Of a stretch of 32,000 bases of DNA, positions 1 through 29,858 are shown piece by piece. Numbering within the stretch: position 1 is the first letter of the stretch; each line of letters begins with the position of its first letter. Source of the stretch: an uncultured bacterium (GTDB lineage Bacteria > Auribacterota > JACPWU01); the NCBI GenBank assembly GCA_964640155.1, contig CAZXEQ010000001.1, positions 396,403-428,402 on the forward strand, written 5' to 3'. The position numbers and the translations under genes are program-made. The notes under the pieces were generated by a model, which saw only the letters and a list, made by a program, of their open reading frames with translations, was not told the origin of the DNA and did no database searches.

Positions 1-3000
1 GCGCAGGTTCCCTTCGTATGCGATCAAAAAGAACGGATTCATCTGATAATCCAAGAGACAGAGAAGAACCTATCTGCATTATTTTATAAGCTTTGTTCTG
101 GAGAGGTTCTTTTAGAAGAACATGATCCCATGAGCCTGGCAATAGAGGATCTGTAACTCCAAGCAAACTTTCCCAACTATTGATCATTCTTTCAATTCCC
201 AAGTTAGAATTCCAAAAAATATTATGAATATGATAAGAAGTCCATCTTGTCTTCAAAATTTCATAATTACTTGAATTTTTGAAAAATGCTTTAGCGTCAT
301 AAGTAGCGATCTCTTTTGATCCTTGTATCACTCTAATTGTATCTTTTCGGATATCCCAATGAAGAGAAATCGAAGCAGACCATGATGTCTTCTTAAGAGT
401 GTCTCTTAATAAGTTATGATCGAGAACTTGATCTCTTCTTGAGAATACAAGACCTCTCATATGATCAGCTCTTGCATCAAATCCTGAAACTCCATAAATC
501 CCTTGAAGAAGCGTTGTAAAAGCAGCGCGATAATAATGCTCTCTTACATCATCACTTTTAGCTAAAGCCGCACGTGTTAGAAAAACATCTACCTTGTCAT
601 AAGCAAACAGCACATATCCCTTCTCAAGGGTAATAGAATCTCCAACGTTGATACGCGTTTGAACAACATAATACGATCTTGATCCTAAAAGTTCCGCGTT
701 AAGCATAAAATGAAGCTTTCCAGAGTTTAATTTCTCTTTCAAATCAGCCCAAGAATCTAATCCTAAACTTTCAAACCACGGACGAAGACGCGCTTCACCT
801 CCCAAAACATCCAAAACAGAACCATTCACTTCAAACAGATCTTTTCCTCGGCCTTGTAATTCTTTAAGTCTAGTTTCTAAAACTTGATCTTGATCATGAA
901 CTGTTATATTTGCTTTTTCACTCCTTAAAATAACTTCTCTAAAAGCATTTTTCAATTCCAGAAAAAGCTGCTCTCGAGAATAAGTTAAAGCCATTTTCCC
1001 AACATAAATCTTCCCTTCTTTAACAATAATTCCTGGATCAGATTCCGAATCAATTACTACTTCAAAAGAAGATGGGTTTTTTCCCGTAAGAAATGCAAAG
1101 GCCTTAATAGCCCAATCGTGTAAAACTTCTGTGGAACCCTGTGGATGAACTCTTGCCATTCTCAATGAATCAAAGCTTAAGGAAAAATGCTCAAGAAGAA
1201 ACAAAAAATGAGAATAATCTTTTTCTAGATAATCCGAAGGAAGATGCACTTTAATTCCTATAGAATTAAGAGAAATCACAATTTTCCCTTGAAAATCTTT
1301 CAAGATACTGACATAGAATTTTTTCAAAGTTTGAATATATGGATCTTGTCCCAATGATGCAATCAATTTAGTAATCCATTTGGGCTGAAAATATGGATTT
1401 TGTCTCAGAGCATCTAACCATTTTTGCTTATCTACATCCTTCGTTTGTTTTAAAAGCTTTTCATAAAATTTTAAAACTTTTTCTTCTTCCTTTTCATTTT
1501 TCAGAATGGATTCGATTAAATTTGGATGACTCAACAAAAGTTCCCAGACTTTTTTCTTCACTTTATCCGCAATTTGTCCGGCCCTATCCTCTATTTCATC
1601 ATCCAATTGCAGAAGAGGATCCTTTTTCCAAGATTCCGTCATTCTCCTTAAATAATTCCAATCTTCCTCAAGAGCTGCTTGCTCCAAAATCCAAACCATT
1701 AAATCACTCAATTCGCCACATCCATCCTTTGCGTTTTCTCGACTTTGAGCATCTCGATTGTAAAAAGGTTCGTGCTGAACAGCATCTGTATGAGGGAGAT
1801 ACCCTATCCGCTCTATTAAAGGATGAACCAACGTCTGAGCTAAAATGGAAGCAGATACAGATTGCACAAAAGCTTCCGTCACATACACCCTAATAACCGC
1901 TTCTGCTTTTTCTTCAATTATATCTGTCCATTCATAAATAGGTCGGGTGCGCCCTTTTAATCGGAAACCCTTATCATCACCCATATTTATCACACAAACT
2001 TCTACGCGCCCTTCTTTAAAAACTTTGTGGCCTATTTTTAAAGGGACTTTCACATTTTGACCAAACAAAATAGCGCGAGCAATTTTTTTATGAAGACCTT
2101 CATAAAAAGGAGGAATATCTGAATTCCTCAAAGCTTCCGGAATTTTTTTCTGATTCATTTCATCACGTTGCATCACACGAATGGGATTTTTAGCAGCCAA
2201 ACCTTTCAGCTCTTTCGCTTCCAATTTAGTTAAATGGGCCTCCCCCGGAGCATGTTTAGTAGCAATTGCAGCTTGCCTTTGTCCCAAGCGTAAGCCTTCT
2301 TGAAGTAAATTCTGGAGATTACTTCGAGCTAAAGGTTCTTTTAAAAACGCCCCTATCTTTTTTGCCAATTCGTTGGGATCAAATCCTGACAATCTTCTCA
2401 TTTCCAAAATATTTTTTTGAATCAAATCTTCTATACGGAGAACGAATAAATGAGTTGAATGATTTCTAAGTAAATCTATCAAAGCATAAATAGCGTTGTC
2501 TATTCTCTCACCCTTCAAATCATTCAGAATCACTTCTAAAGTATCTCGAATAGAGACATGCTGAAATTCAAGCTCCTTATCATATTCATTTTTGATAATG
2601 ATATCCGCATCTCGACGTTCTTGATCTATTGTATAACGAAAAATAAAATTTCTTGTTTTCGGAAAATCTTTTACAAAGCGAACTTCCTCCATTTGAACTT
2701 TGCGGATTGATTCTAAAAAAGCCTTTTTTGCACTTTTAAAATATTTCTTACGATTTTTTGGAGTTCTTGCACGCTCAGATTTAAGAATCCATTTCAAGAC
2801 AGACGAAGCTAAGTCCTCTGACAAAGATTCTTCTGTTAATTTCCTTAACTGCTGAATATTATTAGCTTTTCTTGAAAGTCGGGCCAGTTGAAGTATATTT
2901 TTTTGCTGCATGAAAGGCCGAAGCCTTTCAACCAATATATCCTCATGAATTTCCATAAAAACATGAATATCTGCTTCCATAGGCTCAGTGGTTAAATCTG

Positions 3001-6000
3001 AAAATTTGTCTCGTCCATTTAATGAATACGCTCCTTCAACAATGACCAGTTTCTTTCCCTTTTTCTTTGCCTGTTCAACTTCTTTTTCCAAAGAAGATCG
3101 CTTTGAATAATCATCTGCATGAATAATAAAAATTTCAGAGGGTTTAATATCATTCAAACCCCATTGGGCAATTGCATCCACCCATGCTGTTTTTCCTGAT
3201 CCGGGGCGGCCTCCTACACGCACAATAACAGGCCCCTTTCTTTTAGACTTTATCGCGGATACTTTCATAAATAAATCGCCATAAGCCTCTCTAACTTCTT
3301 TTCTCTGAACTCCCCAACGGTTTTTAATCTTTTTACGATAAGGATATGTTCCTGACCGTAAGGTTCCTTTCCTTAATCCAAATCCATCTCTTTGTTCAAA
3401 CCTTTCTATATCGTCTATCGTTAATATTCCTTCTTCTCCAGGAAGTGTCACATGTATATCTCTTTCTGTTATCCATCTTTCACCTTTAGCCCCATGCAAA
3501 ATTTTATGACAAGCAATTGAAAGAATGCTCGCGATTTTTTGGAAACGCTGAAGCATCACTGAATCTATATTTTCATCTACATCTAATTCTGTCTGGGAAG
3601 CTGAAGCAACTTCTTTTGGAAGGGGTTGATAAGCATCTATTCCTTCTTCCATATAAGCATTCAAAACATGTTCTAAATCTGATAATGTTTCGACTCTATT
3701 GCTCTGCCCTTTAAGTTGCGGAATTTCCTCAGATAAGACTTTATTGATAAGCTTTCTAGCCTCATCATAACCAAACGCATCCATGACTCCATCTCCTAAG
3801 CAACGGACCGAGATATTGCTTATCCTACTGTATTGAAAGTTTAAAATATCTAATACTTGCGCTAAAGCCATCGGTTTTTCAGAAACTCGATCAAGATCCA
3901 CAAAAACAACACGATAATCTCCTTCTGCGGTTTTAATCATCATGATATTTTCTGGGGTAGGATCATCAATGATATGCCCATTTAAAACCTTCCACATGTC
4001 TAAAACGCCAGAAACAGCAGAGCGATAAAGCTTGTCCATTGCTTTAAAATAATCGGCTTCTGAAATAACTCGTTGGGCCTTCTGTGTTGCAAGATCTAAG
4101 CATAGTCTCTTTAAAGAAACTGCCTTTACCTTGCCTTCAGAATAAACTGTCACTTTCTCTCCCCCATTTAACTGTACATCCACATGAGGACCAATACTTG
4201 GATGCATACCTGCTGCTTTTAAAGCAAAACCAGCTTCTCTAGCCCTACGACGAGCTTCAGGAGTAACATCAGTTTGAGACCTAAAAACTTTCAAAATAAA
4301 AATATATTCATTTTTCTGAGAAATTTGTGCTCCCGATTGAACAACCACTTCGTAAACACGCTTTCTACTACCTTCATCTCCCCACAAACGAATTTCAATA
4401 GAAGCAATATCTTCAGGAGCTATAGAAATGCCATAAATAGAACGTAACGCCTCAATCACCATCGGTTGAACTTTTTCTCCTTGAAATCTCATAGTTTTAA
4501 TCAGTGCTCTTTGAATTACTTCTGTGTCACGATCTCCAATTTTTTCTTGGCGAAAATGCATTTTGGAAATTAATATATCTTTGAACTTTGAATCTTCAAC
4601 CCCAGACGCCTCATATCGATCGTCTAATTCTTTTCGAGCAGCTTGATAAAACAAACCCTTTGGATCATTGAAATGAATAGGTTCTACATTTTCTAATTCT
4701 TCAACACTCATACAAGCAATTTCACATTGAGCCAAGGCATGTGCAGAAGTCCCTTCTAAAGCTGCATCTACGGCACAAGCAATGGCATGAGCATGTTGAA
4801 TATCTGTTTCTGTAAATATTTGATCTTCTCCATCGAATTTTCCCTTATTAAAAATTAAATCTGCTATAATTTTTGCTTCAGTATATTCATGCCGTCTCAA
4901 AATTCTTTTCGCCTCTTTACCAATATCATCCTGATCCATTCTTTTTAATAAATCTTTACGAGTTTTAATTTTTCGACTGAGGAGATCCCAATAGGCCAGA
5001 TCTCCTCCATGATCTTTACTTGGTTCAATTTTCCCCAAAGGGTAAAATTGACTTTCACTTCCTTCTTCAATTGCTAAATTGGCATACTCTGTTTTTGGAG
5101 TTTTCTTTAAAACTTTTAAAACCACAGCTACTCTTTTTTGTAAATAGATCTCTTTTTCTTGAAGAGTTTCACCTGGAGGCCAATTTTCATCTTTTCGACC
5201 TTTGGCTGGGATTTTGAGGGCGGAAGGTTTAGTAGCACGTACCAGAGAAGATTCTTCGGGATATTCCAAAAATTTTCCTGCTACATCCTCTTTTAATTTA
5301 TCAAGAATAGGATTCCTAATTTGACGAGTACACGTGATATTGCCCATCCTTTTAATCACTTCAAATATAGCCAAAAATGCTTTGACCTGAGAAATCCCTT
5401 CATCGCTGCCAAAATAGCCCTTAAGAAATTGTTCAGCTAAGCTTTGCCCTTGAGCTGGATAAGCTTGATATAGGTGCATAGTGATAAACCAAAGCTCATA
5501 GTAAAGATATCCCAAGTCTTGAGCTGCCGTTAATCCCTCTCTTTTGATAACAGAATCTAAATCATGCAAAACAGGTAGCTGACCATTTAGGATAGAAATA
5601 TTGTTATAATGCAAAAATCGATGAATAAATCCTGAGTCATGAAATTGTCGAACAACTCTTCCATATGCCATTAAAGAGTGCGGATCAAAATGCTTAAATC
5701 TTTTATCAACTTCCATCCCATCACTTAAACCGAAAGCAATAAAAGCTGTTTTTCTTCCATTCAATTCGACTCCTGGATACTCTCCCCAAACCAGTGGATA
5801 TTTTGTTTGAGCAACGCCCGAAAGAGAAGTCCGAGGAGATAAAAGAGTTGCCATTTGATATAACATTTGAGTATTTAAAAATTCTTCTAACACCCCTTTT
5901 AACCAAGCACCTCCTTGTGGGATATCACTATAGGGAATTCTCATTAAATTCCCGCCCAAATCAAATCCCATAGACTCACCCACCCCCGATCCTGCATGAG

Positions 6001-9000
6001 CAATTAAGGGTTTTCTTGCATCAAAAACAACTCCTTTTGCTTGAACATCCTTCATGGGATTATCATCATAAAGGAAACGAGGCAGATACTGAGAACGGTC
6101 TCCCAAAGAAATTTCAACAGAACGAGTATTCTTTTGTGTTTTAACATTTGTGGAAGCACAAACTGCAATTTTCAAAATCATATTTCTAACATTTTGATTT
6201 TTAATTTCATCCACATGAATTTCTTCTGCCTCTTTTTCTCCAATCAATAACTCTTTATTTACATATAGAGTAATCAAACGATCTCCTTGAGGGACAATAA
6301 CTCGCCTTGTGAATCTAAGAACCCTTTCTTTTAAACGTTTTTCTTGCTCTTCAATTACAGCGAGATAAAATTTTCTTTCAACATCATTTGGATGATGTGG
6401 TTGTATTTGACTAAGCTCTTCATCACTCATTAAAGGAATCACTAATTTCATCAAAGGATGTAAAGCCCCATTGATATGGGCGTCCAAAGCAGAAGTGATG
6501 GCATGTCGTCGATCACGATCGGACTCCTGAAAAGTTCTTTCACCTTCAGGTTTTTCCAAATCTTCGTCAATCAATTGACGAAGTAAAACATTTTCGACAT
6601 ATTCATGACGACGAAGAATTTCGATAATTTTCTGAAATCTTGCTGGGTCTGTTTTTTCTAATGCATAGATGCCATCATAAAGATCTTCACGGACATAAAT
6701 AGCTTGAATATCCCCACTGTCCCAAAACTTACAAAAGGCAAAGTCATTGTTATGTTCTGGAGGGAATTTATTTCTTTCCAAACGTTCGATCTTTAACCCT
6801 TGATAAACATTGGGATCAAGCCTTTTCAAAACCTCATTCACTTGATCTTCGCCTATGGGTTGAGATATTTTTTTGCCTTGGCCTGGGATCGCAAAAGCCC
6901 CTTCTTTTTCTAAAGAGATTCCGAAATTCCAAAGATAATGAAGAAATAATGTCAGTACAAAAACTCCTACTAAAACACCTGGGTTTATTGCAGAGGTAAA
7001 ACTCAAGAGTGCTAGAGGAGAAAAGATAAAAAGACCATTCTTAAATTGAAGCCAAAGCATTTCAAGCTTTGCATCTTTACTTCCTGGCAAATGAAGAACA
7101 GAAAAGATGATAGCCGTCACAAAGACTGGAACAAAAAGTGCCAGAGGAGCTACTCCTAGTACAGGATTCAGTGCCAAGATAAGAGGCAAACTCACCAGGA
7201 TTGAAAATGCATTTTCAAACGCGGGGCCCCATTTTGGATAACCAGGCAAATGCTTTAGCCATAGGAAAAGGGCTTTCCTTCCCCCGCGAAGTTCTTCAGA
7301 TGTAGCTGACACCACAACAGCTTGTGGTGAAACTACTTGACCTAAACTTTCTGGAGAAACTCCTTTTTCAACTAAAAATGCTTTCAATACCACTTTAAAA
7401 GGAGGAACAAGTGCAGGAGTTTGCTCATCTAACATTCTATAAAAATAACTATCTCCCCTCCCAGCTTTATCCAATAACGGATAAGCTGCTTGTAGCATCT
7501 CCAATCCATGCTCAGGATACAGTGTTAAAACACCTTGAAAAATCTCGTATAACACCCATCTTAGCTGATCTCTTGACTGGAAAGCGGTTAGATGTCCTGC
7601 CAATATCAGCAGAATATCTACCAGTTGTGTATAGGTGCTTACCAAATCTACATCAATTAATTTTCCTTCAATTACATCTACTTCTCGAGAAATTTCACGA
7701 GAAGTCATTTCTAAAATTTTTCTTATTTTATCTGCTGTTATTTGATGAAGAGCACCATCTTCGTCTTCCATGTGAGAGTCTAAAGCATGCTCTCCTAAAA
7801 AATTTACAACTACATTTCCTCCATGAGGGTCATCAATAAAAGACTTTCGCCCTGTCGCTTCCCAAGCTCTTAAATAAATTCGGACAATATTACGTAAAAG
7901 AATGGATCTCATCATTAAAGCTTCTGTCGAGGAAAGATCTCTAGATGCCTCTAAATTTCTTACTTGTTGAACAATCCTTGACCATCTCAAGCCTTTAACT
8001 ACATCATCGCTCATGACCCATACTTCCCCTCCCCCAAGTGTTCCTTTTTCAGGAGACCAGGTAGCACCCAACGCAGGATAAAGACCTTTTTCATAAAGCA
8101 TTCTTGCCATTTCATTCATCATCTGAATTTGAAAATTCCCCCATTGTTGAACAACCGCGAGAAAGAAATTAGGTTGTGTTACTTCGATAACGATTTTATG
8201 CTGTTTGCCAGTGCTTAAGATCACTTTCACTTGATAAACATGTTTCATGCCATCTTGATCTACTTTAAAGCCAATCACTTCAACAGGTCCTTCTCCTAAC
8301 TCAAGTCCATGTGTGTTCATCAAAGTTTCTTCAATAAAATTATCTGCGAAGGCTGCTTCTAAAAAATGATGATCTGGTTCTTTAACCGTTGATGATCCAT
8401 GACTCCAAATAATTTGTCTCTGACTTCTTCGAGCAAGCTCAGTTTGCACAGCACTATAAAAAGCTTGATCTTGATCGTTAGGATGAGTTTCTTGAATTTT
8501 TTGTAATTCACTTTTTCTCATAAGCAAAATGACATGTTTCATAAGAGGGTGAAAAGTGGTAGGGTTAGGATTTTCTAAACTTCCACTTCCAATAGCAGCA
8601 TCAACCGCAGAGGTTAAAAAATGCTTTTGAGCTTCATCACCTGTCGCTAAAACACCTTCTCGAATCAATTGAGGAATTAAAACATTCTCAACATATTCAT
8701 GCCGTTTAATGATTAATTGAGCAACAGGATTTTTTTGAATGCGATTCCAAAGACTTCGACGAATTTGAACTTTGTAAGTTTTTTTGTCATTGCGAGCCGC
8801 AGGCGAAGCAATCTCAACCAATCTTGCAAAATCATCTCCCTTCCCATCAAAAGATTCGACAATTTCAAATGGGAGATTTTCATAATCGTGACTCCCATCT
8901 CTTTTCAAACGTTCCAAAATCGCATCAATTTTTGCAGCGGCTGGAGGACCTTGAGCATGCGTTTCACCTGAGCCAGGGGCTTTGAGAGCTCCTGGTCTTG

Positions 9001-12000
9001 GAGAGGCCGTTGCCTGTCTTCCTCTAATTCCATCAAACCAAAATGCCATGAAATGACAACTTGGAGAAAATAAAGTTTGAATATCACTTTGAGTCAGTAA
9101 TTCTCTAAAATTTAAAGTAGGAGGTTTTTTCTTAAGTGCTGCATCGATTCTTCCGGGATCGTCAACTTTTAGACTTTTTTGTGAAAGAATTTCCCAACGA
9201 AGCATGACTTGAAAAAAAGGGGACAAATCTGGATTTCTTAAAGCTCGATCTAAAATCCAAAGTCTTTCACGGCGCTCACTGAATCTTCCCTCACGTTCAC
9301 AAAATTTTTGCAAAGAAAGATGAAATTGGCCCAAATCACTTTCAGTCCAGAAATCACCTGGAGCGAAAAGATAGGACGCCTCTCTTCTTACAATCTCTGC
9401 CTCAAGATGAAGATATTTATAAATAGCATCAAAATATTTTTTTCGAAAGGCTTCGTCGCTGACTAGCTTGCGATCTATCTCATCGGAACTTGTATATCTT
9501 GGGAAAAGTTCGTTTTTTAAAGCTTGAAATTCTTCCCTCACTTTTTTTTGTTCAATCATTTTCCCCGCCCGAATACAAAACATTTTCAAAGAAGCTGAAC
9601 GTTCTTTGGAATAGCGTAAAAACTTTGCTACGTGAACTCGGATCACATTCCCAGTTACTTCAATCGGAAAAGATTCGTCCCGCTCTTCGGGTTCTGGCGT
9701 CTCATTTATTTCAAAATGAAAAGAAGAATTTTTATTTTGAATAGCTTCTAGTAATATTTCAAAATCCTCAGAGAAAGATGGACTTTCTGGTATTTGTCTT
9801 TTTGGCATTTGTTGAGCATATTTTCTCAAAATCCTAAGAATTTTATCTTTCGGTGTCTTATCTCTATCGATCTGCCAATTATGCACATAATGAAACAAAA
9901 TTGTGATACCCGTAACCCCTATCAAAAGAGGAATCTGTGCCACAGAAAAACCAAGAAACGTCACAACAATCATTAAGGGGGAGAATAATGCCCCTCCCAT
10001 CCAAAAATATTGAACAAAAAGTTCCCACTTAGAACCAGAACCTGATTTAGGGAAATGAAATAAAGAGAATAGAGTTGGAAATCCTAGAGCAAAAACAAAA
10101 TGATAAAATAAATCGCTTCTAGTTATAAAAGGAAGACCCGTCACAGCAGTGAGAATCGCAAAGAGTCCAAAATTAAGTAGAATTACAAAAACATTTTCAA
10201 AGGTCGGGCCCCATTTTTCATAATTTTTTAAATGTCTAAGCCAAGGGAAAAGGGCAAATTTTTCAAAAACAACTCTTGCCTCATCAGGCCTTAAAATATT
10301 TTTTGCAAAACCTATCTCTCCTTTTAGCACCTTATCCATATCTACAGCATCCAAACATAAACTTAATAGAAAAGGTTTACCAACACTTAGTTTTTTTTCT
10401 ATCCGAGAGCGTGAATTTGAACCCAATCCTGATGTTTCTTTTTCTAGTTCAAAACGAATCACCACTTGAAAGACAGGAGATAGTTCTGGATTTTCCAACA
10501 TCCGATCAAGGGCAAAAAACCTTAAACTTACATCATCATAAGGACGACCTCCATTCCATCTAACAACATCTGATGTTGACTGGTTAGGATCGTGAGCATA
10601 ACCATGGTTTTTAAAATACTCTAAACAAGCACGATCCTTCTGCATTCTCAACGTCAAATTATTTTGACTCCAAGTAAAATAGAGGCCTTGCAACCAAGGA
10701 TCTGCTTTGAAATTCTCATAAACTGTTTGAGCTGTTTCTTCCTTTGGATAAAGTTTCTTTTTCTGCTGTATTAACTCTCGCATCTTTTCTTGTTGTTCTA
10801 AAAAACCAGAAAAGCTAATGCAAAAAATCTCCAAATCTAAAGAACCCCCTTCATCCCCCGGCATAAAAGCGGCATAATCTAAAACAACTTTACCTTTTAT
10901 TAGTTGAATGGGAGGACTTGATGCTTCTGGTTTAGGAGTAACACCCAAAAACGGACCATTCTCTACTTCAATATCACCCGCTTTCAAGAGCTCTATCAAA
11001 TAATAAAATTTTTGTTTCTCAGTAAAATCATTTGTTTTGTCGTGAAATTTCTGGAAAATAGCTAAAATTTCTAATTGTGTATTGTCTAAATTGGGTACTT
11101 CTATAGATTGATGTTCAACCTTTCTTTCAACACTTTCACCATTCATAACTTTATTCCAAAGAGACAAAAACTCATTCCAAAAGAAATGAAGGGTAAATGA
11201 AAGAGCAAGAACCCATCCAAAAATAATTTGATTCATAATCAACGCAGGAAAACCTAAAACAAAAACAGATAAAATGAGAGGAGAAAGAATAAACAATCCA
11301 CTTATCAGCTGATCATGAAAAACCTTACTTTTTTCATTCCATGCAGTCCCCGGTAAATGAGACAAAGCAAATACGAATGGCAAAGCTATTGCTGAAACAA
11401 TCCGAATCATCGGACTAGGATGGTTGATAGCTTCAATACAGAAAGATTTTGTTGCAGCAACCCAAGGGCGAGATTCATCTAAAATTCCCCACTCAAAGAG
11501 CTTCATTGCAATCGCAAAAGGCGCTGCACTCCATCCAACTGCCCACAAATTTTCAAAAATGGGGCCCCATTTTGAATAACCAGGCAAATGCTTAAGCCAA
11601 GGGAAAAGGGCTTTATCATCTTGAATTGTTTGAGGGTTTCTTCTTTGAAGCTCTTGTTGAACCGCATTATAAAATTCTTTTCGAGTATCATTCGGATGCT
11701 TCTCTTGGATGGCCTCAAGCTCTGATTTTTTCATAACTTGAATCACACGCTTCATCAAGGCATGGACAGAATTGGGTTTTCTCTGGTCAATACTCCCATC
11801 CCCAATTCTTTCATCTACAATAGAGGCAAGTGTATGTGCTTGGGTTAAATCATCCGAATTCAAAGCGCCTAGCCTAAACAATCGAGGAATTACAACATGT
11901 TGTAGCCAAGCATGACGTCTCAAAATCAATTGAGCATCAGAATCTTCTTTAATTTGATTCCAAAGATGTCGATGAATTTTAAGAGTAGGTTTGAATTGAT

Positions 12001-15000
12001 GTGTTGAGGGATCTTGAACAGAAATCAATCGAACTAAGCTACCTTCGTCTTCTAAAGAATCCACAACCTCAAAAGGAATACACGCATATTCAGCGATATC
12101 TTCTTTTCGAAGAGCTGTAAGCATCGCATCAATTTTTGCAGGATCAGGAGGACCTTGAATGCGTGTCTCTCCCTGCCCAGGAATTTTAAAAACAACTAGA
12201 TCTAAACCCTCTTGCCATCTCTGTGTTTCCTCTGATTTTCTCATCTGAAAATCTTTAATGCGTTCTGCTAACTCCAGGGGATCCATTTTTCCATCGAATA
12301 GGTATCCTCGGGGAAGTTTTCCCATAATCTCCTCAAGTAATTGCGGATTGTCCGGAAATTCCTCCAAGAAAACTTCAAAAAGAAAGTCCATATTCTCGCC
12401 CGAAAATCTATGAAAAAATTCATCGGCAATCAAAAGAAGGATTTTGACGATATCATCAGAAGGAATCACAACATCTGCATCTATTAGGTAAAAGCCTCGA
12501 GGGAAATCTGCAATTAATCTTTCAATATTCTCTTGTGTCACAACTTGATCTTTAGGCCAGTCCACCATTAAATTTCCAAGAAAAGAATCAAAAATAAACA
12601 TTTTTTTCTCAGAAGTTTTCCATACATGAATATAAAATCGAGCTAAAGCTTTAAATAAATCTCTCCTTAATTTGTAATACACCTCAGCGGACATTCTTTT
12701 TTCATCAAATTCTTTTTTCAATGCTCTGATTAAATTCCCTCCATTTTTACCTTCAACATATTCCTCACTGAAAACCCAGACTTTTTTTGTATGCCTGACT
12801 TCTTGAATTTCTCCCTCCCACATTCCTCCAAAACCTGGATAGCACCCCTTTTCAGACCACATTTGAGTTTGTTCTACAATCATTGAGGATTGTGTATGGT
12901 GAGCACTTTCATCAAACCCTTCGTAAAATCTAGGTTGTGTGACTTTAAAAACAATTGTTTTTATTCCTCCCCCCTTCAAAGGCAATATCAACTGATAAAC
13001 ATGTTTCATTGCATTTTTTCGCAAAGAAACAGGAATAACTTGAATTGGAGCTTGCTTATCCAAATCAACTTCTTCTCCATAAATATTAATAAGAGATGTT
13101 TCGAGAAAACCATCCTTTAAAGCTCTCAAAATGAGATCTCGATCCCGGGGAGGAGTAGGTGCAGCAATTCTCTTCCACTCTAAACGACGAATGACTTTTT
13201 CCCTTTCTCCTAGCTCACGTTTAGCTGCTTTCTGAAAGGCTCCTGCTGGGTCATTCGGATGCCTGCTTTTAACTGCTTTTAATTCTTCATTGTTCAACAA
13301 AGGAATCGTATGCTTCATTAAAGCATGATAAGAAGTTTTTTCTAGTTGAGCATCAATACGGGAAGCAATGGCATGGGCTTCTCTAACTTGATCTTCTTCT
13401 AAAGTTTCAAAATCAGATTTTCCAACATTGGCAGGCAAACCTCGCTTTAAACTGGGAACAAGCACATATTCAATATATTTACGACGTATCAAAATGAGCA
13501 AAGCCTCTTGATCGTTTTTAATTCGATTCCAAAGATGACGATGAATTTTAATTTCCCCATATTCATGATCATAATAAGCAAGATCTTGAGCTAGCCCCTT
13601 AGGCAATACATCGACGACATCAAAATAACTAGAAAGATCTTCATTCGATGTTTTCAATTTTTCGAGTTCTCGGAATTTTTCTGAATCTCGCCACTCGTTT
13701 AAAACAAAGTCTACCGCATAGTTCATTCTTCCTTCGGGAATCGGGTTTTTGACCAGATCGCGTCTTTGAGTCATTTCTGGGATATAGGAAGTCAAAAATT
13801 GGTAAGCTTCTCTTCCAAGAGCTCCTCCCCCATTTTCAAAAACAGCTTTTGAAGCCACACGTAAAAAGTCTTCGGCAGGTATCATTTGAAGGTGATAAGA
13901 GCCCATGGCTCCATCGGCTAAAACTTGAATGCCCTGGTCCAGCCACAATGCCTTTGAGCTTTTAGAAACAAAACTTAAAACAAAAGCCTCTTTCCCTTTC
14001 TTCACTAAAACAAAACGCGCTTTCCCAGACACAATCTCTCTAGGGAAAAATCGCAAATCAGCAATGTCAGGGAAATCTTTTTTCAAGGCCGCATGCCTTT
14101 TTGCCAAAACTTCCGCAATATTGGAAATTTGTCCTGCTATGGCTTCTCCTCCTGCGGTCATTTCAAATTCTATACGAAGGGTGGACTCTAATTGTCTGGC
14201 GACATCGGCATCACCAACCAGAGCATGCAAAAGAGAGCCTTGATGAAGTGTATGGGAAGTAGAAGCTAACTTTTGCTCAAATGCTGAGGTTTTCCCTAAC
14301 ATTCGAGCACGATAGAGAGCTTCCGTCTTCTGGTCTACTCCTTGGGTTTGAGGTGTAATGACGGTATATGAAATATTTTCATTTTCAAAAAACTGTGTGA
14401 AAGAATCTGTATGAAATCCACCTGTGACAAGGACGACAACAGATCGGTTTGTTTCTTTCATCCTTTTCAACGTGTTCTCGTAAAGGATGTGATCTCTTTT
14501 TTGAGCCAATTCATAAAACTTCTCGAATGGGGAAAGATCAAAAGAGACAGGACCTGCAATTTTTTCTAACCATAATATTTTTTCATCTTTTATTTCTAAA
14601 AATTCTTTTAACTCTTTTCGACTTAACTTAAGAGAAATCAGTTTTTCAACAAGACAAAGAGTTTGTACTTCTTTCCAAAATTGCTTTTCTTCAGAAGATT
14701 GAAACAACTGATCCGCTACAAGAAGTTCAAGCTGTTTTATTTCATTAGAAATTTTTGCATGATCAAGTTTTGCCCCCAACTTCACAAAGTCAATGTATTG
14801 AGACAAGTCCGGATAAGATTTAAGCGTCTCTTCTCCTACCAAATTTTTCATCTCTGCAAAATAAACATCGTCCTTTATACGCCCCAGTCGATATTCCAAC
14901 CCCTTACGAATCCATTCTTGAAGCTCTTCTCTTGGGAGTTGTTGACTCAGTTTCTCATTAAGCAAATTTCTTTCTTTTTCTATCTTCTCAGGTTTTAACT

Positions 15001-15799
15001 CTTTCTGAAGTTGCATCATTTTTTGAAAACGCGTCAGATTAGGGAAGGAAGAGATTTGGACAGAATGAGACATTTTAAAAAGAAAGTTTAAATAACTTTT
15101 AAAAGAAATATTACCTTTTTGATAACTCCTATATTTTTTAAGAAAAGACTGTTTTTCAGAAGAAATATTTTTTAAAAAATCTCTATTTTTTGTTTCGCAG
15201 ATTTTCAACCACTGTTTTGCCTGCTTTTGAAAAGCTGCGCAAGATTGATAAGCCTCTTTATTTTCCAAATAAATTTTTTCATCCTCAATCCCAAAAATTT
15301 CTGGTTTCCATTCTGGATGAATAATCGAAAAAAATTCTGGACCTGTGAATTTAGCTTTGCTCAAAAAATAATCAGCCGCATCTTCCTTAATCTGCCGTTC
15401 GGGAAAACTCGAGAAAAACTCAGAATCAATAGGTCCCGTGGCTCCCTCCATTCCAATTAAAATTCCCTTTTCAATTTCACCCGGCGCATTACTTTCGAGA
15501 AAACCATAAATACGTTCTAAAATCTGAGAAATATGTTTTTGAGCCTGAACATCCACGTGAAGATCTTGAATATGAATCACCCAAGGGGCAGAATCACGAG
15601 ATAAATCACTCCAAGATTTTTGAATATTCCCTAATTCAGAAGGAAGAGACAGCTCTCTTTTGGGGGCTATGCCACTACTTAATCTATTTGTAGACAATGA
15701 ATTATGACTTTCCTCAAGAAGCGCACAAACATCTTGAGAAAATTGATTAAAAACAAAAAAAAGCAGTACCAATATCTTCAAACCAGAGTTATTTTTCAT
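1..15799 (-). CDS. Giant multidomain membrane protein; N-terminus complete, C-terminus beyond the left window edge (>5,266 codons in window)
   Basis: ATG at 15799-15797, with an alternative in-frame GTG at 15835 just after an in-frame TGA. Reading the minus strand in the frame whose codons sit on plus-strand triplets starting at positions equal to 2 mod 3, I found no TAA/TAG/TGA down to position 2. The ORF track has no minus-strand ORF in this frame, consistent with an ORF lacking a stop in the window. All listed ORFs in 1-15.8 kb are 60-166 aa and in other frames. The product begins MKNNSGLKILVLLFFVFNQFSQDVCALL (signal/anchor-like) and reads as coherent protein with recognisable repeated modules throughout. 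Confidence 0.85.
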   Translation of the reverse strand, partial: MKNNSGLKILVLLFFVFNQFSQDVCALLEESHNSLSTNRLSSGIAPKRELSLPSELGNIQKSWSDLSRDSAPWVIHIQDLHVDVQAQKHISQILERIYGFLESNAPGEIEKGILIGMEGATGPIDSEFFSSFPERQIKEDAADYFLSKAKFTGPEFFSIIHPEWKPEIFGIEDEKIYLENKEAYQSCAAFQKQAKQWLKICETKNRDFLKNISSEKQSFLKKYRSYQKGNISFKSYLNFLFKMSHSVQISSFPNLTRFQKMMQLQKELKPEKIEKERNLLNEKLSQQLPREELQEWIRKGLEYRLGRIKDDVYFAEMKNLVGEETLKSYPDLSQYIDFVKLGAKLDHAKISNEIKQLELLVADQLFQSSEEKQFWKEVQTLCLVEKLISLKLSRKELKEFLEIKDEKILWLEKIAGPVSFDLSPFEKFYELAQKRDHILYENTLKRMKETNRSVVVLVTGGFHTDSFTQFFENENISYTVITPQTQGVDQKTEALYRARMLGKTSAFEQKLASTSHTLHQGSLLHALVGDADVARQLESTLRIEFEMTAGGEAIAGQISNIAEVLAKRHAALKKDFPDIADLRFFPREIVSGKARFVLVKKGKEAFVLSFVSKSSKALWLDQGIQVLADGAMGSYHLQMIPAEDFLRVASKAVFENGGGALGREAYQFLTSYIPEMTQRRDLVKNPIPEGRMNYAVDFVLNEWRDSEKFRELEKLKTSNEDLSSYFDVVDVLPKGLAQDLAYYDHEYGEIKIHRHLWNRIKNDQEALLILIRRKYIEYVLVPSLKRGLPANVGKSDFETLEEDQVREAHAIASRIDAQLEKTSYHALMKHTIPLLNNEELKAVKSRHPNDPAGAFQKAAKRELGEREKVIRRLEWKRIAAPTPPRDRDLILRALKDGFLETSLINIYGEEVDLDKQAPIQVIPVSLRKNAMKHVYQLILPLKGGGIKTIVFKVTQPRFYEGFDESAHHTQSSMIVEQTQMWSEKGCYPGFGGMWEGEIQEVRHTKKVWVFSEEYVEGKNGGNLIRALKKEFDEKRMSAEVYYKLRRDLFKALARFYIHVWKTSEKKMFIFDSFLGNLMVDWPKDQVVTQENIERLIADFPRGFYLIDADVVIPSDDIVKILLLIADEFFHRFSGENMDFLFEVFLEEFPDNPQLLEEIMGKLPRGYLFDGKMDPLELAERIKDFQMRKSEETQRWQEGLDLVVFKIPGQGETRIQGPPDPAKIDAMLTALRKEDIAEYACIPFEVVDSLEDEGSLVRLISVQDPSTHQFKPTLKIHRHLWNQIKEDSDAQLILRRHAWLQHVVIPRLFRLGALNSDDLTQAHTLASIVDERIGDGSIDQRKPNSVHALMKRVIQVMKKSELEAIQEKHPNDTRKEFYNAVQQELQRRNPQTIQDDKALFPWLKHLPGYSKWGPIFENLWAVGWSAAPFAIAMKLFEWGILDESRPWVAATKSFCIEAINHPSPMIRIVSAIALPFVFALSHLPGTAWNEKSKVFHDQLISGLFILSPLILSVFVLGFPALIMNQIIFGWVLALSFTLHFFWNEFLSLWNKVMNGESVERKVEHQSIEVPNLDNTQLEILAIFQKFHDKTNDFTEKQKFYYLIELLKAGDIEVENGPFLGVTPKPEASSPPIQLIKGKVVLDYAAFMPGDEGGSLDLEIFCISFSGFLEQQEKMRELIQQKKKLYPKEETAQTVYENFKADPWLQGLYFTWSQNNLTLRMQKDRACLEYFKNHGYAHDPNQSTSDVVRWNGGRPYDDVSLRFFALDRMLENPELSPVFQVVIRFELEKETSGLGSNSRSRIEKKLSVGKPFLLSLCLDAVDMDKVLKGEIGFAKNILRPDEARVVFEKFALFPWLRHLKNYEKWGPTFENVFVILLNFGLFAILTAVTGLPFITRSDLFYHFVFALGFPTLFSLFHFPKSGSGSKWELFVQYFWMGGALFSPLMIVVTFLGFSVAQIPLLIGVTGITILFHYVHNWQIDRDKTPKDKILRILRKYAQQMPKRQIPESPSFSEDFEILLEAIQNKNSSFHFEINETPEPEERDESFPIEVTGNVIRVHVAKFLRYSKERSASLKMFCIRAGKMIEQKKVREEFQALKNELFPRYTSSDEIDRKLVSDEAFRKKYFDAIYKYLHLEAEIVRREASYLFAPGDFWTESDLGQFHLSLQKFCEREGRFSERRERLWILDRALRNPDLSPFFQVMLRWEILSQKSLKVDDPGRIDAALKKKPPTLNFRELLTQSDIQTLFSPSCHFMAFWFDGIRGRQATASPRPGALKAPGSGETHAQGPPAAAKIDAILERLKRDGSHDYENLPFEIVESFDGKGDDFARLVEIASPAARNDKKTYKVQIRRSLWNRIQKNPVAQLIIKRHEYVENVLIPQLIREGVLATGDEAQKHFLTSAVDAAIGSGSLENPNPTTFHPLMKHVILLMRKSELQKIQETHPNDQDQAFYSAVQTELARRSQRQIIWSHGSSTVKEPDHHFLEAAFADNFIEETLMNTHGLELGEGPVEVIGFKVDQDGMKHVYQVKVILSTGKQHKIVIEVTQPNFFLAVVQQWGNFQIQMMNEMARMLYEKGLYPALGATWSPEKGTLGGGEVWVMSDDVVKGLRWSRIVQQVRNLEASRDLSSTEALMMRSILLRNIVRIYLRAWEATGRKSFIDDPHGGNVVVNFLGEHALDSHMEDEDGALHQITADKIRKILEMTSREISREVDVIEGKLIDVDLVSTYTQLVDILLILAGHLTAFQSRDQLRWVLYEIFQGVLTLYPEHGLEMLQAAYPLLDKAGRGDSYFYRMLDEQTPALVPPFKVVLKAFLVEKGVSPESLGQVVSPQAVVVSATSEELRGGRKALFLWLKHLPGYPKWGPAFENAFSILVSLPLILALNPVLGVAPLALFVPVFVTAIIFSVLHLPGSKDAKLEMLWLQFKNGLFIFSPLALLSFTSAINPGVLVGVFVLTLFLHYLWNFGISLEKEGAFAIPGQGKKISQPIGEDQVNEVLKRLDPNVYQGLKIERLERNKFPPEHNNDFAFCKFWDSGDIQAIYVREDLYDGIYALEKTDPARFQKIIEILRRHEYVENVLLRQLIDEDLEKPEGERTFQESDRDRRHAITSALDAHINGALHPLMKLVIPLMSDEELSQIQPHHPNDVERKFYLAVIEEQEKRLKERVLRFTRRVIVPQGDRLITLYVNKELLIGEKEAEEIHVDEIKNQNVRNMILKIAVCASTNVKTQKNTRSVEISLGDRSQYLPRFLYDDNPMKDVQAKGVVFDARKPLIAHAGSGVGESMGFDLGGNLMRIPYSDIPQGGAWLKGVLEEFLNTQMLYQMATLLSPRTSLSGVAQTKYPLVWGEYPGVELNGRKTAFIAFGLSDGMEVDKRFKHFDPHSLMAYGRVVRQFHDSGFIHRFLHYNNISILNGQLPVLHDLDSVIKREGLTAAQDLGYLYYELWFITMHLYQAYPAQGQSLAEQFLKGYFGSDEGISQVKAFLAIFEVIKRMGNITCTRQIRNPILDKLKEDVAGKFLEYPEESSLVRATKPSALKIPAKGRKDENWPPGETLQEKEIYLQKRVAVVLKVLKKTPKTEYANLAIEEGSESQFYPLGKIEPSKDHGGDLAYWDLLSRKIKTRKDLLKRMDQDDIGKEAKRILRRHEYTEAKIIADLIFNKGKFDGEDQIFTETDIQHAHAIACAVDAALEGTSAHALAQCEIACMSVEELENVEPIHFNDPKGLFYQAARKELDDRYEASGVEDSKFKDILISKMHFRQEKIGDRDTEVIQRALIKTMRFQGEKVQPMVIEALRSIYGISIAPEDIASIEIRLWGDEGSRKRVYEVVVQSGAQISQKNEYIFILKVFRSQTDVTPEARRRAREAGFALKAAGMHPSIGPHVDVQLNGGEKVTVYSEGKVKAVSLKRLCLDLATQKAQRVISEADYFKAMDKLYRSAVSGVLDMWKVLNGHIIDDPTPENIMMIKTAEGDYRVVFVDLDRVSEKPMALAQVLDILNFQYSRISNISVRCLGDGVMDAFGYDEARKLINKVLSEEIPQLKGQSNRVETLSDLEHVLNAYMEEGIDAYQPLPKEVASASQTELDVDENIDSVMLQRFQKIASILSIACHKILHGAKGERWITERDIHVTLPGEEGILTIDDIERFEQRDGFGLRKGTLRSGTYPYRKKIKNRWGVQRKEVREAYGDLFMKVSAIKSKRKGPVIVRVGGRPGSGKTAWVDAIAQWGLNDIKPSEIFIIHADDYSKRSSLEKEVEQAKKKGKKLVIVEGAYSLNGRDKFSDLTTEPMEADIHVFMEIHEDILVERLRPFMQQKNILQLARLSRKANNIQQLRKLTEESLSEDLASSVLKWILKSERARTPKNRKKYFKSAKKAFLESIRKVQMEEVRFVKDFPKTRNFIFRYTIDQERRDADIIIKNEYDKELEFQHVSIRDTLEVILNDLKGERIDNAIYALIDLLRNHSTHLFVLRIEDLIQKNILEMRRLSGFDPNELAKKIGAFLKEPLARSNLQNLLQEGLRLGQRQAAIATKHAPGEAHLTKLEAKELKGLAAKNPIRVMQRDEMNQKKIPEALRNSDIPPFYEGLHKKIARAILFGQNVKVPLKIGHKVFKEGRVEVCVINMGDDKGFRLKGRTRPIYEWTDIIEEKAEAVIRVYVTEAFVQSVSASILAQTLVHPLIERIGYLPHTDAVQHEPFYNRDAQSRENAKDGCGELSDLMVWILEQAALEEDWNYLRRMTESWKKDPLLQLDDEIEDRAGQIADKVKKKVWELLLSHPNLIESILKNEKEEEKVLKFYEKLLKQTKDVDKQKWLDALRQNPYFQPKWITKLIASLGQDPYIQTLKKFYVSILKDFQGKIVISLNSIGIKVHLPSDYLEKDYSHFLFLLEHFSLSFDSLRMARVHPQGSTEVLHDWAIKAFAFLTGKNPSSFEVVIDSESDPGIIVKEGKIYVGKMALTYSREQLFLELKNAFREVILRSEKANITVHDQDQVLETRLKELQGRGKDLFEVNGSVLDVLGGEARLRPWFESLGLDSWADLKEKLNSGKLHFMLNAELLGSRSYYVVQTRINVGDSITLEKGYVLFAYDKVDVFLTRAALAKSDDVREHYYRAAFTTLLQGIYGVSGFDARADHMRGLVFSRRDQVLDHNLLRDTLKKTSWSASISLHWDIRKDTIRVIQGSKEIATYDAKAFFKNSSNYEILKTRWTSYHIHNIFWNSNLGIERMINSWESLLGVTDPLLPGSWDHVLLKEPLQNKAYKIMQIGSSLSLGLSDESVLFDRIRREPA
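2590..3260 (-). other. P-loop nucleoside-kinase-like domain (uridine kinase / PRK family-like)
   Basis: GPVIVRVGGRPGSGKTAWV (Walker A, nt about 3188-3214) ... IFIIHADDYS ... KKLVIVEGAYSL ... ADIHVFMEIHEDILVERL ... RRDADIIIKNEY. The order and spacing match the Udk/PRK layout as I remember it. Confidence 0.6.
3880..4400 (-). other. Protein-kinase-like domain 4 (motifs most complete)
   Basis: RKRVYEVVVQSG...EYIFILKVFRS (beta3 Lys) ... EARRRAREAGFAL ... NGHIIDDPTPENIMM (catalytic loop) ... YRVVFVDLDRV (DFG-equivalent). I re-derived this codon by codon from 3886..3975. Confidence 0.6.
4600..4960 (-). repeat. HE-x-x-E/HPND module copy 5 (HFND variant)
   Basis: GKEAKRILRRHEYTEAKIIADL ... IQHAHAIACAVDAALEG ... 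CMSVEELENVEPIHFNDPKGLFY. Confidence 0.55.
5500..6060 (-). other. SelO/YdiU-like pseudokinase-fold domain with substituted active-site residues (tentative)
   Basis: DLGGNLMRIPYSDIPQGGAWLKGVLEEFLNTQML...SPRTSLSGV ... KRFKHFD ... GFIHRFLHYNNISILNGQLPVLHDLD is colinear with the remembered E. coli YdiU segments [33 protein letters not shown]...PTTRALSIV ... LRFGHFE ... [21 protein letters not shown]. The LKGAG lysine and the TDN aspartate are not conserved here. Confidence 0.45.
6340..6900 (-). repeat. Linker motif plus HE-x-x-E/HPND module copy 4
   Basis: AIPGQGKKISQPIGEDQVNEVLKRL ... ARFQKIIEILRRHEYVENVLLRQL ... RRHAITSALDAHING ... HPLMKLVIPLMSDEELSQIQPHHPNDVERKFY. Confidence 0.6.
6920..7275 (-). 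other. CPBP/Abi-like intramembrane protease core 3
   Basis: ALFLWLKHLPGYPKWGPAFENAF ... IIFSVLHLPGS (FxxxH) ... LTLFLHYLWNF (HxxxN). By my count the motif spacing is about 43 and about 52 residues. Confidence 0.55.
7600..8260 (-). other. Protein-kinase-like domain 2 (ABC1/UbiB- or APH-like catalytic loop)
   Basis: MKHVYQVKVILSTGKQHKIVIEV ... GRKSFIDDPHGGNVVVN (compare HxDxHPGN of atypical kinases) ... GKLIDVDLV (DFG-equivalent). Confidence 0.55.
8440..8985 (-). repeat. Linker motif plus HE-x-x-E/HPND module copy 3
   Basis: KAPGSGETHAQGPPAAAKIDAILERL ... LPFEIVESFDG ... VQIRRSLWNRIQKNPVAQLIIKRHEYVENVLIPQL ... KHFLTSAVDAAIG ... HPLMKHVILLMRKSELQKIQETHPNDQDQAFY. Confidence 0.6.
9870..10255 (-). 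other. CPBP/Abi-like intramembrane protease core 2
   Basis: ALFPWLRHLKNYEKWGPTFENVF ... TLFSLFHFPKSG (FxxxH) ... ITILFHYVHNW (HxxxN). Confidence 0.5.
11165..11615 (-). other. CPBP/Abi-like intramembrane protease core 1 (about 4 TM helices)
   Basis: ALFPWLKHLPGYSKWGPIFENLW (motif 1-like, E-N in place of E-E) ... LPFVFALSHLPG (FxxxH) ... LSFTLHFFWNEF (HxxxN). Hydrophobic helices lie between the motifs. Confidence 0.55.
11640..12190 (-). repeat. Linker motif plus HE-x-x-E/HPND module copy 2 (variant RRHAWLQH)
   Basis: KIPGQGETRIQGPPDPAKIDAMLTAL ... IPFEVVDSLED ... LKIHRHLWNQIKEDSDAQLILRRHAWLQHVVIP ... QAHTLASIVDE ... HALMKRVIQVMKKSELEAIQEKHPNDTRKEFY. Confidence 0.6.
12440..13020 (-). other. 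Protein-kinase-like domain 1 (catalytic loop degenerate)
   Basis: MKHVYQLILPLKGGGIKTIVFKV ... FIFDSFLGNLMVDW ... FYLIDADVV. It is colinear with kinase-like domains 2 and 4, but the loop reads D-S-F-L-G-N instead of DDPxxxN. Confidence 0.45.
13180..13560 (-). repeat. HE-x-x-E/HPND module copy 1 (degenerate: RRKYIEY)
   Basis: The translation reads EIKIHRHLWNRIKNDQEALLILIRRKYIEYVLVPSL...REAHAIASRIDAQL...HALMKHTIPLLNNEELKAVKSRHPNDPAGAF. It is colinear with the four other copies. Confidence 0.6.
14340..15600 (-). other. N-terminal domain of the giant protein, paralogous to the N-terminus of the 1511-aa protein; tentatively erythromycin-esterase/ChaN/TraB-GumN/TIKI-like
   Basis: The motifs WVIHIQDLHVDVQAQ, ILIGMEGATGPID and VVVLVTGGFHTDSFTQFF..ISYTVITPQT align with VIMIQDPHCVIDAQ, FIAVEGAQGEIN and CALIVGGFHIDGLKQLF..ISYVVLTPTT in the 25256..29791 product. 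The His...Glu...GGxH layout resembles the bipartite signature of the EreA/ChaN/TIKI superfamily. That comparison is from memory, not a search. Confidence 0.45.
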
Positions 15800-15885
15800 C
15801 AGGAATAAAGGTCTTTGTTGGGGTATTTTTCGCACTCATATATATGCCATATGAATAAGCGTAAGTCAAATCCCAAAGCAGAAAA

Positions 15886-15904
15886 GTTAATTTCTATAAT
15901 TAAC
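15886..15904. promoter_or_regulatory. Inverted repeat GTTAATT-N5-AATTAAC in the divergent giant-gene/asnC-type intergenic region (possible operator)
   Basis: A perfect 7-nt inverted repeat is visible in the sequence. A TTGACT -35-like hexamer for the minus strand lies nearby at 15864-15869. Confidence 0.25.
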
Positions 15905-15988
15905 TCATTTAGAACATGTTATATCTAACTATTGATTTTAGCATATTTTTTTGATATTGTGCCTTTCTAATATTGAAAGGGAGGAAAT

Positions 15989-16471: not shown

Positions 16472-16587
16472 AGAACAGAGGCATGAGGCACGAAGCAGAA
16501 AGCAGGATTAAAGATTGATTCGTTTTTCATGCTTCCTGTTTCATGCTTCTCTCTTCAAAAATACTTGAAATAAATAAAAGAAAAACC

Positions 16588-29782: not shown

Positions 29783-29858
29783 GTTTCTCAAGATTAAAGA
29801 GTTGACAGGGATCCCCCCCCTCTTACCACGTCACCTTAGCCCTAGAAATTATTTATTT

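Follow-up and report, generated by a model that had tools for sequence, protein, structure and literature searches.

A 5,277-residue modular membrane protein of an Auribacterota bacterium and the N-terminal head that joins it to a large family of long proteins

The window considered here is a stretch of 32,000 nucleotides from an uncultured Auribacterota bacterium (contig CAZXEQ010000001.1 of assembly GCA_964640155.1, positions 396,403 to 428,402). Its first 15.8 kb is one real gene, read on the minus strand, that encodes a modular membrane protein of 5,277 residues (aa), called the giant protein below. Behind a signal-like N-terminus the protein carries a head domain that is shared with a very large family, followed by a body of duplicated modules. 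The best explanation of the data, and one judged probable, is that the gene encodes a member of this head family whose duplicated-module body would work as an envelope-tethered multi-enzyme assembly.

A single gene of 15.8 kb

Machine translation of the minus strand, begun at the ATG at 15799 and carried down to base 2, gave 5,266 codons without a stop, and the whole stop-free stretch (15835..2, minus strand) spans 5,278 codons. About 392 stops are expected from base composition over 5,266 codons, the probability of finding none is ~1e-177, and each of the other five frames has 15-58 stops per 500 codons. The initial annotation had described a frame of more than 5,266 codons open from this ATG to the window edge, and so it proved. 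It had also supposed that the caller of open reading frames (ORFs) needs a stop inside the window. By its own description, the ORF listing omits ORFs that run off the end of the source, and the giant ORF is missing from the track for this reason; for positions 1-15800 the listing holds four ORFs of at least 100 aa, the longest of 166 aa. The "gene-free" half of the window is thus an artefact of the listing.

The true end of the gene, expected beyond the left edge, was found in a database protein. This protein (P0001), present in NCBI without annotation and encoded on a contig of 620,977 bp, matched all 5,000 aa of the query with 100% identity. Residues 1-5,266 of P0001 equal the translation of the window, which stops at ...REPA; 11 more residues (RLSLRRFDVAA) bring it to its end and to a total of 5,277 aa. 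The last 11 codons and the stop of the giant gene therefore lie outside the window.

The frame has the properties of coding DNA throughout. The G+C content of the DNA is ~37%, and G+C at the three codon positions falls in the order GC1>GC2>GC3 in all 500-codon blocks. Orthologous loci were found in two other assemblies. The first (L001) belongs to a metagenome-assembled genome of Candidatus Auribacterota, a phylum of the Planctomycetota-Verrucomicrobiota-Chlamydiota group. This nearest named relative is syntenic with window positions 14046-18216 at 81-87% nucleotide identity and keeps the start Met of the giant protein. Over 585 aligned head codons of this orthologue, the ratio of nonsynonymous to synonymous substitution rates (dN/dS) was 0.13. 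The second (L006, a Logan assembly) has the same upstream neighbours (CobS-like, TonB-dependent receptor, TonB, aminotransferase and AsnC genes) and then a 4,263-aa orthologue, P0002. The coding signal, the dN/dS and the syntenic orthologues uphold the initial view of a real giant product rather than low-complexity filler.

Could the long frame still be an artefact of assembly or annotation, such as a chimera or collapse among its repeats, or the joining of several genes through sequencing errors? The sequence is of metagenome origin and internal protein repeats do exist. However, the repeat copies are 20-58% identical as protein in a self-comparison, the longest internal DNA repeats are 86 nt long at 71-80% identity, and the DNA self-comparison found no near-identical repeats inside the gene. 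Repeats so short and so diverged make assembly collapse or chimerism among them very unlikely. Sequencing errors more often create stops than erase ~392 of them. The uniform coding signal, the purifying selection on the head, the same gene order with a colinear orthologue in the independent assembly L006, and the 5' end of the gene in L001 also speak against an artefact, which is hardly credible. Recoding of stop codons as the cause of the long frame was rejected, since all three stops were counted as stops.

Module map, head and head-defined family

Borders of the modules of the giant protein were drawn from self-comparison and from hidden Markov models (HMMs) built from the copies. The catalytic residues given for the K modules were assigned by motif order and by the secondary structure of an AlphaFold model. 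The map reads as follows, from the N-terminus:

15716..15799, minus strand: signal-peptide-like helix, aa 1-28 (lysines K2 and K8, ILVLLFFVF..., acidic EES; helix 5-25 in the AlphaFold2 model; hydrophobic aa 9-27)
14135..15715, minus strand: head, aa 29-555 (head alignment A1, AlphaFold2 model, HMM search)
13751..14134, minus strand: linker, aa 556-683 (50% identity in the orthologue, otherwise unique)
13145..13750, minus strand: A1, aa 684-885 (motifs RHEYVE...H...D...HxLMK...HPND)
12215..13144, minus strand: K1, aa 886-1195 (complete: beta3 K952, catalytic D1071, N1076, metal-binding D1107)
11615..12193, minus strand: A2, aa 1203-1395 (self-comparison, copy HMMs)
11144..11614, minus strand: T1, aa 1396-1552 (four-helix membrane module with WGPxFEN, FxxxH-LP and HxxxN)
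10256..11122, minus strand: X1, aa 1560-1848 (repeated soluble module)
9866..10255, minus strand: T2, aa 1849-1978 (membrane module)
9005..9850, minus strand: X2, aa 1984-2265 (copy of X)
8390..8998, minus strand: A3, aa 2268-2470 (copy HMMs)
7370..8368, minus strand: K2, aa 2478-2810 (beta3 Lys lost, E2539; catalytic D2657, N2662 and metal-binding D2716 kept)
6902..7276, minus strand: T3, aa 2842-2966 (membrane module)
6290..6907, minus strand: A4, aa 2965-3170 (best-conserved module between the orthologues, 65%)
5240..6289, minus strand: K3, aa 3171-3520 (beta3 Lys lost, D3260; catalytic Asp lost, F3395; N3400, metal-binding D3413; 51% in the orthologue)
4565..5230, minus strand: A5, aa 3524-3745 (modelled with K4)
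3560..4564, minus strand: K4, aa 3746-4080 (complete: beta3 K3837, catalytic D3946, N3951, metal-binding D3968; the modelled copy)
2810..3244, minus strand: P-loop domain, aa ~4186-4330 (Walker A GRPGSGKT, aa 4197-4204)
2..2809, minus strand: window part of the C-terminal region, aa 4331-5277 (~950 aa, no recognisable family)

The AlphaFold2 model of the head is confident (mean predicted local distance difference test score, pLDDT, 81.7; predicted template modelling score 0.74). It consists of an N-terminal helix, a disordered spacer and an alpha/beta core with an all-helical insertion of ~275 aa (aa 174-449). The orthologue in L001 has 44 additional residues in this helical insert, after aa 243 (L001 ~3352-3492 against window ~15066-15074), which indicates that the insert tolerates insertions and deletions. 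In the head alignment, H81 (in IHIQDxH), E118 (vEGA), R435 (FY..A..RD) and G460-G461-x-H463 (TGGFHT) are invariant, and D79 is mostly conserved.

The head is what connects the giant protein to other proteins. When its first 5,000 aa were used as query, 82 further giants, 2,758-7,727 aa long, were obtained; they match query residues ~10-520 only and always at their own N-terminus. Most are Omnitrophota proteins, and some are labelled Elusimicrobia, Chlamydiae or Verrucomicrobiae. An exhaustive HMMER census with a profile of 21 heads (E 2.4e-167 against P0001) was made over representatives of 50%-identity clusters. The head was found in 10,486 of these at E<=1e-3 and in 7,428 at E<=1e-30, and in all but one of the 150 best matches (149) it begins no later than about residue 30. 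Neither Pfam nor NCBIfam has a model for it.

The ~4,700 aa that follow the head in the giant protein are a different matter. The bodies of the relatives differ widely in their Pfam domains, most of them metabolic: phosphoglucomutase, phosphofructokinase, enolase/TIM/PGK, hexokinase, SecA_DEAD, AAA+, UbiB, Pkinase and methyltransferases. The linker and the X, K, T, P-loop and C-terminal parts of the giant protein recur only in the orthologue P0002, and A is also found in two further family members (P0154 and P0160). Database searches that started from an A-K-T unit of the interior or from the alignment of A-K units gave no matches, not even the giant protein itself, which was taken as a limitation of the word index and not as absence. 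With the head kept and the bodies different, the family is best described as combining a conserved head with bodies that are lineage-specific. A further member of 5,549 aa (P0074) is on a contig equal in length to that of P0001, presumably the same contig. Ten short head proteins of 650-960 aa, which contig ends may have cut short, had no Pfam domains.

A second member of the family is encoded in the window itself:

25256..29791, minus strand: head-family paralogue of 1,511 aa (TTG start; head HMM E 1e-128)

The head of this paralogue is 28% identical to that of the giant protein. The paralogue has no Pfam domain, and its body has no BLAST-level similarity to the giant protein. The body contains an internal repeat (aa 662-827 and 1149-1319), of which the second copy carries HExxH (LRHEIDHAL) and the first is degenerate. 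A relation between this HExxH repeat and module A was considered and rejected (hhalign probability 0.06).

The body, its orthologue and the neighbouring genes

Scans of ten overlapping 600-aa tiles of the giant protein against Pfam, NCBIfam and PADLOC returned nothing above threshold and only weak P-loop matches. The modules of the body were characterized from their copies, their motifs and a structural model. No internal repeats were found in the C-terminal 1,200 aa, and a genome scan with the C-terminal 500 aa gave no match.

The K modules had been called kinase-like in the initial annotation, and the structural model agrees. The AlphaFold model of the A5-K4 unit (pLDDT 76) had 100 matches in the PDB at E<=1e-3 and probability 1.00, all of them protein kinases or pseudokinases (PknB, PknA, JAK2 JH2, WNK) or WaaP. 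The best superposition was on the sugar kinase WaaP (TM-score 0.53, root-mean-square deviation 6.5 A). By this model, the K modules adopt a protein-kinase-like fold. At the sequence level, the K modules matched no kinase family in Pfam (E<=0.1) or in a PDB profile search (E<=10). K1 and K4 share with the bacterial eukaryotic-like kinases (PknB, and WaaP, the lipopolysaccharide core heptose kinase) the beta3 Lys, the D-x4-N loop and the DxD metal motif, and the catalytic-loop Asn is invariant across the A-K units. Unlike those kinases, each of the four K modules is preceded by a new domain, A, and K2 and K3 are degenerate. The conservation of K3 (51%) and its partner A4 (65%) in the orthologue suits a structural or regulatory pseudokinase.

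Module A is present in five copies of ~200 aa, mostly helical and rich in His, Glu and Asp. Its invariant residues (R113, E118 in H-E-x-x-E, H148, D155, H164 and H186-x-N188-D189, in the numbering of the A-module alignment A4) suggest a metal or catalytic site. No relative of A was detected outside the head family. The P-loop domain, also noted initially, has in addition to its Walker A motif NCBIfam matches to PRK09270 (E 1.6e-6) and udk (E 6e-5), both far below the curated cut-offs, and Pfam matches to Zeta_toxin/AAA (E ~0.01). From these weak matches the domain appears nucleoside/uridine-kinase-like.

The "three membrane-embedded cores" of the initial annotation are three homologous four-helix hydrophobic modules, T1 to T3. 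Helix a starts with W-G-P-x-F-E-N, helix b ends with F-x-x-x-H-(L/F/I)-P and helix d contains H-x-x-x-N. Across five T copies E21, N22, F82-x3-H86 and H143-x3-N147 are invariant. The core of the CPBP/Rce1 intramembrane glutamic proteases has been described as four transmembrane helices with three motifs (PMC6588880; PMC11980579). T reproduces this layout and two of the three motifs, with Glu in helix a, FxxxH in helix b and HxxxN in helix d. It differs from CPBP/Rce1 in its first motif, which is F-E-N with no second Glu and no Arg in place of EExxxR, and in being three internal modules of a giant protein and not a separate enzyme. No Rce1/CPBP match was obtained for T against Pfam or PDB profiles with HMMER at E<=10. 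T is a candidate intramembrane hydrolase that cannot be filed as CPBP.

How do such genes grow? P0002 is colinear with the giant protein and ~1,000 aa shorter. Identity between the two is 52% in the head, 46% in A5, 45% in K4, 44% in the P-loop domain and 30-49% in the C-terminal region. At the positions of A1, A2 and the block A3-K2-T3, P0002 has no counterpart, which indicates that the gene changes by gain or loss of whole modules. The comparison of the orthologues also shows the route by which such genes grow, namely the duplication and insertion of whole modules, for example A3-K2-T3.

The other genes of the window are of ordinary bacterial kinds and include those for an AsnC regulator, an aminotransferase, TonB, a TonB-dependent receptor, a Lon-substrate-binding-domain protein and an ArsP-type permease. 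The window has no tRNAs and no secretion-system genes. A defence-system or phage origin was rejected, since no PADLOC matches and no tRNAs were found and the neighbourhood shows no signs of mobile elements. Three further features were recorded:

17790-20984, minus strand: block of TonB, TonB-dependent receptor and 207-aa multi-pass membrane protein genes, upstream of the giant gene
21422-23455, plus strand: ORF of 677 aa, no Pfam match, proline-rich, with a hydrophobic N-terminal segment
23530-25182, minus strand: ORF of 550 aa, 74 bp downstream of the 1,511-aa paralogue, weak Pfam match to STT3, an oligosaccharyl-transferase (E 7e-4)

L006 keeps the block at 17790-20984, along with the genes for the aminotransferase and AsnC, upstream of its giant gene, and there the counterpart of the 207-aa membrane protein has a faint CobS match. 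A divergent AT-rich intergenic region of 189 bp (15800-15988) separates the giant gene from the gene of the AsnC-family regulator, and the giant gene has no obvious Shine-Dalgarno sequence before its ATG. This neighbouring, divergently transcribed AsnC regulator is conserved at each of the three loci, and the giant gene might be under its control. The 677-aa ORF contains tandem units of ~30 aa (TTRPPRPPLGGxRPDDHIxPDVIRTAVPI), and its proline codons account for the raised G+C content of the patch in which it lies (0.49 against 0.37 elsewhere). The weak STT3 match suggests that the 550-aa ORF may encode a membrane glycosyltransferase co-transcribed with the 1,511-aa paralogue.

Membrane face, possible function and known giant proteins

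The TIKI superfamily (TIKI/TraB-PrgY-GumN/ChaN/erythromycin esterase) offers the closest comparison for the head. ChaN and HopBA1 have been listed as folds of this superfamily, and its active members use a His-Glu or 2His-2Glu catalytic site (PMC6254334). The order of H81, E118 and H463 in the head matches the order given there. In its model and its conserved residues the head resembles the superfamily, with an alpha/beta core, a (D)-x-His after an early strand, a Glu ending the next strand, and an Arg and a G-x-x-His near the C-terminus. It is unlike the superfamily in its ~275-aa helical insertion and its fusion to thousands of residues of cargo. When 21 heads were scanned separately against Pfam, six gave weak ChaN/TraB matches: the ChaN model Cofac_haem_bdg matched five (best E 3e-4) and TraB_PrgY_gumN one (4.9e-5). 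DUF5694 matched two heads. In a Foldseek search against the PDB, the matches of highest probability were ChaN (2g5g, 0.41) and HopBA1 (5t09, 0.25). An hhalign comparison with E. coli YbaP, a bona fide TraB-family protein, was not significant (probability 0.18) and placed R435...GGFH463 in register with the R...GalH of YbaP. Probably, then, the head is a TIKI-type hydrolase that has diverged but is catalytically competent, its membership being unproven.

At the N-terminus of the giant protein, a basic n-region leads into a hydrophobic core, and an acidic region follows. Of 172 family members, 87% have a strongly hydrophobic N-terminal segment, 95% have an N-flank that is the more positive, and many segments end in A-x-A-like sites. 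These features of a Sec signal or N-in anchor predict an exported head. No hydrophobic segment occurs between aa 30 and 1415 of the giant protein, and each T module has four helices; all soluble modules would accordingly lie on the same side as the head. In the mechanism proposed, the N-terminal signal would bring the nascent chain to the Sec/signal recognition particle machinery. The three T bundles would then tether the protein in the inner membrane, and their even number of helices would leave the soluble modules on the face of the head. The head would be a TIKI/ChaN-type hydrolase (protease or esterase) that keeps the His-Glu...Arg...His of the active members. K1 and K4 would be active phosphotransferases of the bacterial eukaryotic-like-kinase type, and the degenerate K2 and K3 may act as scaffolds or regulators. 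The whole would form an envelope-tethered multi-enzyme assembly.

Several observations weigh against this explanation. The link between the head and the TIKI superfamily is not statistically significant in any single test: the head of the giant protein itself has no ChaN, TraB or DUF5694 match in Pfam, the Foldseek search of the head against the PDB found nothing significant (E 0.49), and a PDB profile search with the head gave no match. The description "protease-like" in the initial annotation stands as far as the head resembles TIKI/ChaN hydrolases and T has CPBP-like FxxxH and HxxxN motifs; neither link reaches significance. In the five T modules, Lys/Arg make up 28 of the 280 residues of the termini and the b-c loop and 3 of the 64 residues of the opposite side, a distribution that favours cytoplasmic termini. 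If the protein is exported, its kinase-like and P-loop domains have no ATP at hand. The A domain, the X modules, the linker and the ~950 C-terminal residues are without any assignment, and the function of the protein has been deduced from folds and motifs only.

The Lys/Arg distribution and the need for ATP speak for an alternative in which gene and modules are unchanged and the bulk of the protein lies on the cytoplasmic face. The N-terminal helix and the T bundles would there serve as tethers only, K1, K4 and the P-loop domain would draw on cytoplasmic ATP, and the protein would be a membrane-tethered scaffold for signalling or phosphotransfer. K1 and K4 keep the Lys/Asp/Asn/Asp set and the P-loop domain is nucleoside-kinase-like, all of which require ATP. 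The cargo of the relatives is normally cytoplasmic (PGM, PFK, enolase/TIM/PGK, SecA, AAA+). In the orthologous locus L006, an FHA-GGDEF gene (19276-20151, minus strand) lies directly after the giant gene. FHA-GGDEF is a phospho-threonine reader joined to a diguanylate cyclase, and the scaffold may feed a cyclic di-GMP output through it; however, this gene is convergent with the giant gene and not co-transcribed with it. Against this placing, ChaN, Tiki and PrgY/TraB are extracytoplasmic, the Sec-signal or N-in-anchor N-terminus here and in 95% of the 172 relatives puts the head outside, and before aa 1415 there is no hydrophobic segment that could return the chain. The cytoplasmic-face model is a serious possibility and nearly as likely as the exported one. 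Because the signal evidence is family-wide, we lean slightly towards the exported, envelope-tethered explanation, and the extracytoplasmic face is slightly favoured without being settled.

The protein could also be a secreted polyprotein or effector carrier, cut by its own TIKI-like head and CPBP-like T modules into enzymes that act on the cell surface or inside a different cell with ATP at hand, in the manner of the MARTX toxins. MARTX toxins are giant secreted bacterial proteins of 3,500-5,300 aa, built of modules; their internal enzyme modules vary and include a TIKI-family endopeptidase effector (RRSP; PMC6254334). The signal-like N-terminus found across the family, the 56% of long members that have no later transmembrane segment by crude hydropathy, the two kinds of putative hydrolase module (head and T) and, in common with polymorphic toxins, a hypervariable body that follows a conserved N-terminal module are in keeping with this scheme. 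Cleavage has also been proposed in print for Omnitrophota giants with C39/S8 domains. However, cleavage sites, toxin domains or translocation repeats could not be recognised in the giant protein, neither protease assignment is proven, and the window lacks secretion-system genes. Unlike MARTX toxins, the giant protein lacks RTX-type repeats, a cysteine protease autoprocessing domain and the context of a type I secretion system, and its TIKI-like module is the conserved N-terminal part, where that of MARTX is a cargo module. Auribacterota have moreover been inferred to be fermenters, in a study that does not mention giant genes (PMC9324843). The polyprotein scheme is possible but unsupported, and it is considered unlikely. 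A little less remote, and still doubtful, is the broader idea that signal and head form a general system in Omnitrophota, Elusimicrobiota, Auribacterota, Planctomycetota and their relatives, with over 10,000 protein clusters and without a description in the papers searched. The TIKI-type head would there export, anchor or self-process giant polyproteins whose fast-changing cargo, kinases and enzymes that are otherwise cytoplasmic among it, works outside the cytoplasm of the producer, in the envelope or in a partner cell.

The initial annotation recognised no described family with this domain combination. That holds for the exact set of modules, which is found only here and in one orthologue. 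It does not hold more widely, as the head defines a huge family and giant multi-enzyme proteins have been published from neighbouring phyla. Giant, poorly annotated modular membrane proteins are already documented there, and the protein is not a new kind of thing. The giants of Omnitrophota ('Archaeovorins', 'multi-enzyme metabolic cluster'; 10.1101/2023.11.21.568195; 10.64898/2026.06.07.730766; PMC10066038) are likewise encoded by very long single ORFs of uncultured bacteria related to the Planctomycetota-Verrucomicrobiota-Chlamydiota group. They share with the present protein a signal-like N-terminus, scattered transmembrane helices, an enzyme-like mosaic with few annotated domains, internal domain repeats diverged at the DNA level and the same paradox of topology. 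The head strengthens this connection, as most of its family are Omnitrophota proteins with such cargo. The differences are those of size, phylum and content. The published work covers proteins of at least 10,000 aa or ORFs of more than 20 kb, whereas the present protein has 5,277 aa and comes from Auribacterota. SecA, dockerin and C39/S8 peptidase are absent from it, as is any domain that Pfam recognises. No Pfam domain of the 'Archaeovorin' or Dockerin sets (glycosyl transferases/hydrolases, methyltransferases, NUDIX and SecA_DEAD; dockerin and TSP3) was above threshold in it.

Relative to the papers searched, three points are new. The two main papers on giant Omnitrophota genes state that the N-terminal regions 'generally lack identifiable domains' and mention neither this head nor TIKI, ChaN, TraB or CPBP. 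A structurally defined N-terminal head that unites more than 10,000 clusters of long proteins is the first of these points, and its probable nature as a TIKI-type hydrolase is the second. The third is the A/K/T/X set, found only here and in the orthologue (A alone in two other proteins), in a phylum for which giant genes have not been discussed.

The giant genes of uncultured bacteria are a recognised gap in knowledge, and published surveys have described them as sequence-unique. The head provides a handle on them: its structure is predicted with confidence, four of its residues are invariant and candidates for catalysis, and its more than 10,000 cluster representatives bring together giant proteins of several phyla that are otherwise unrelated. 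It makes the family searchable and classifiable, and it makes the location and processing of the cargo testable on a protein of manageable size.

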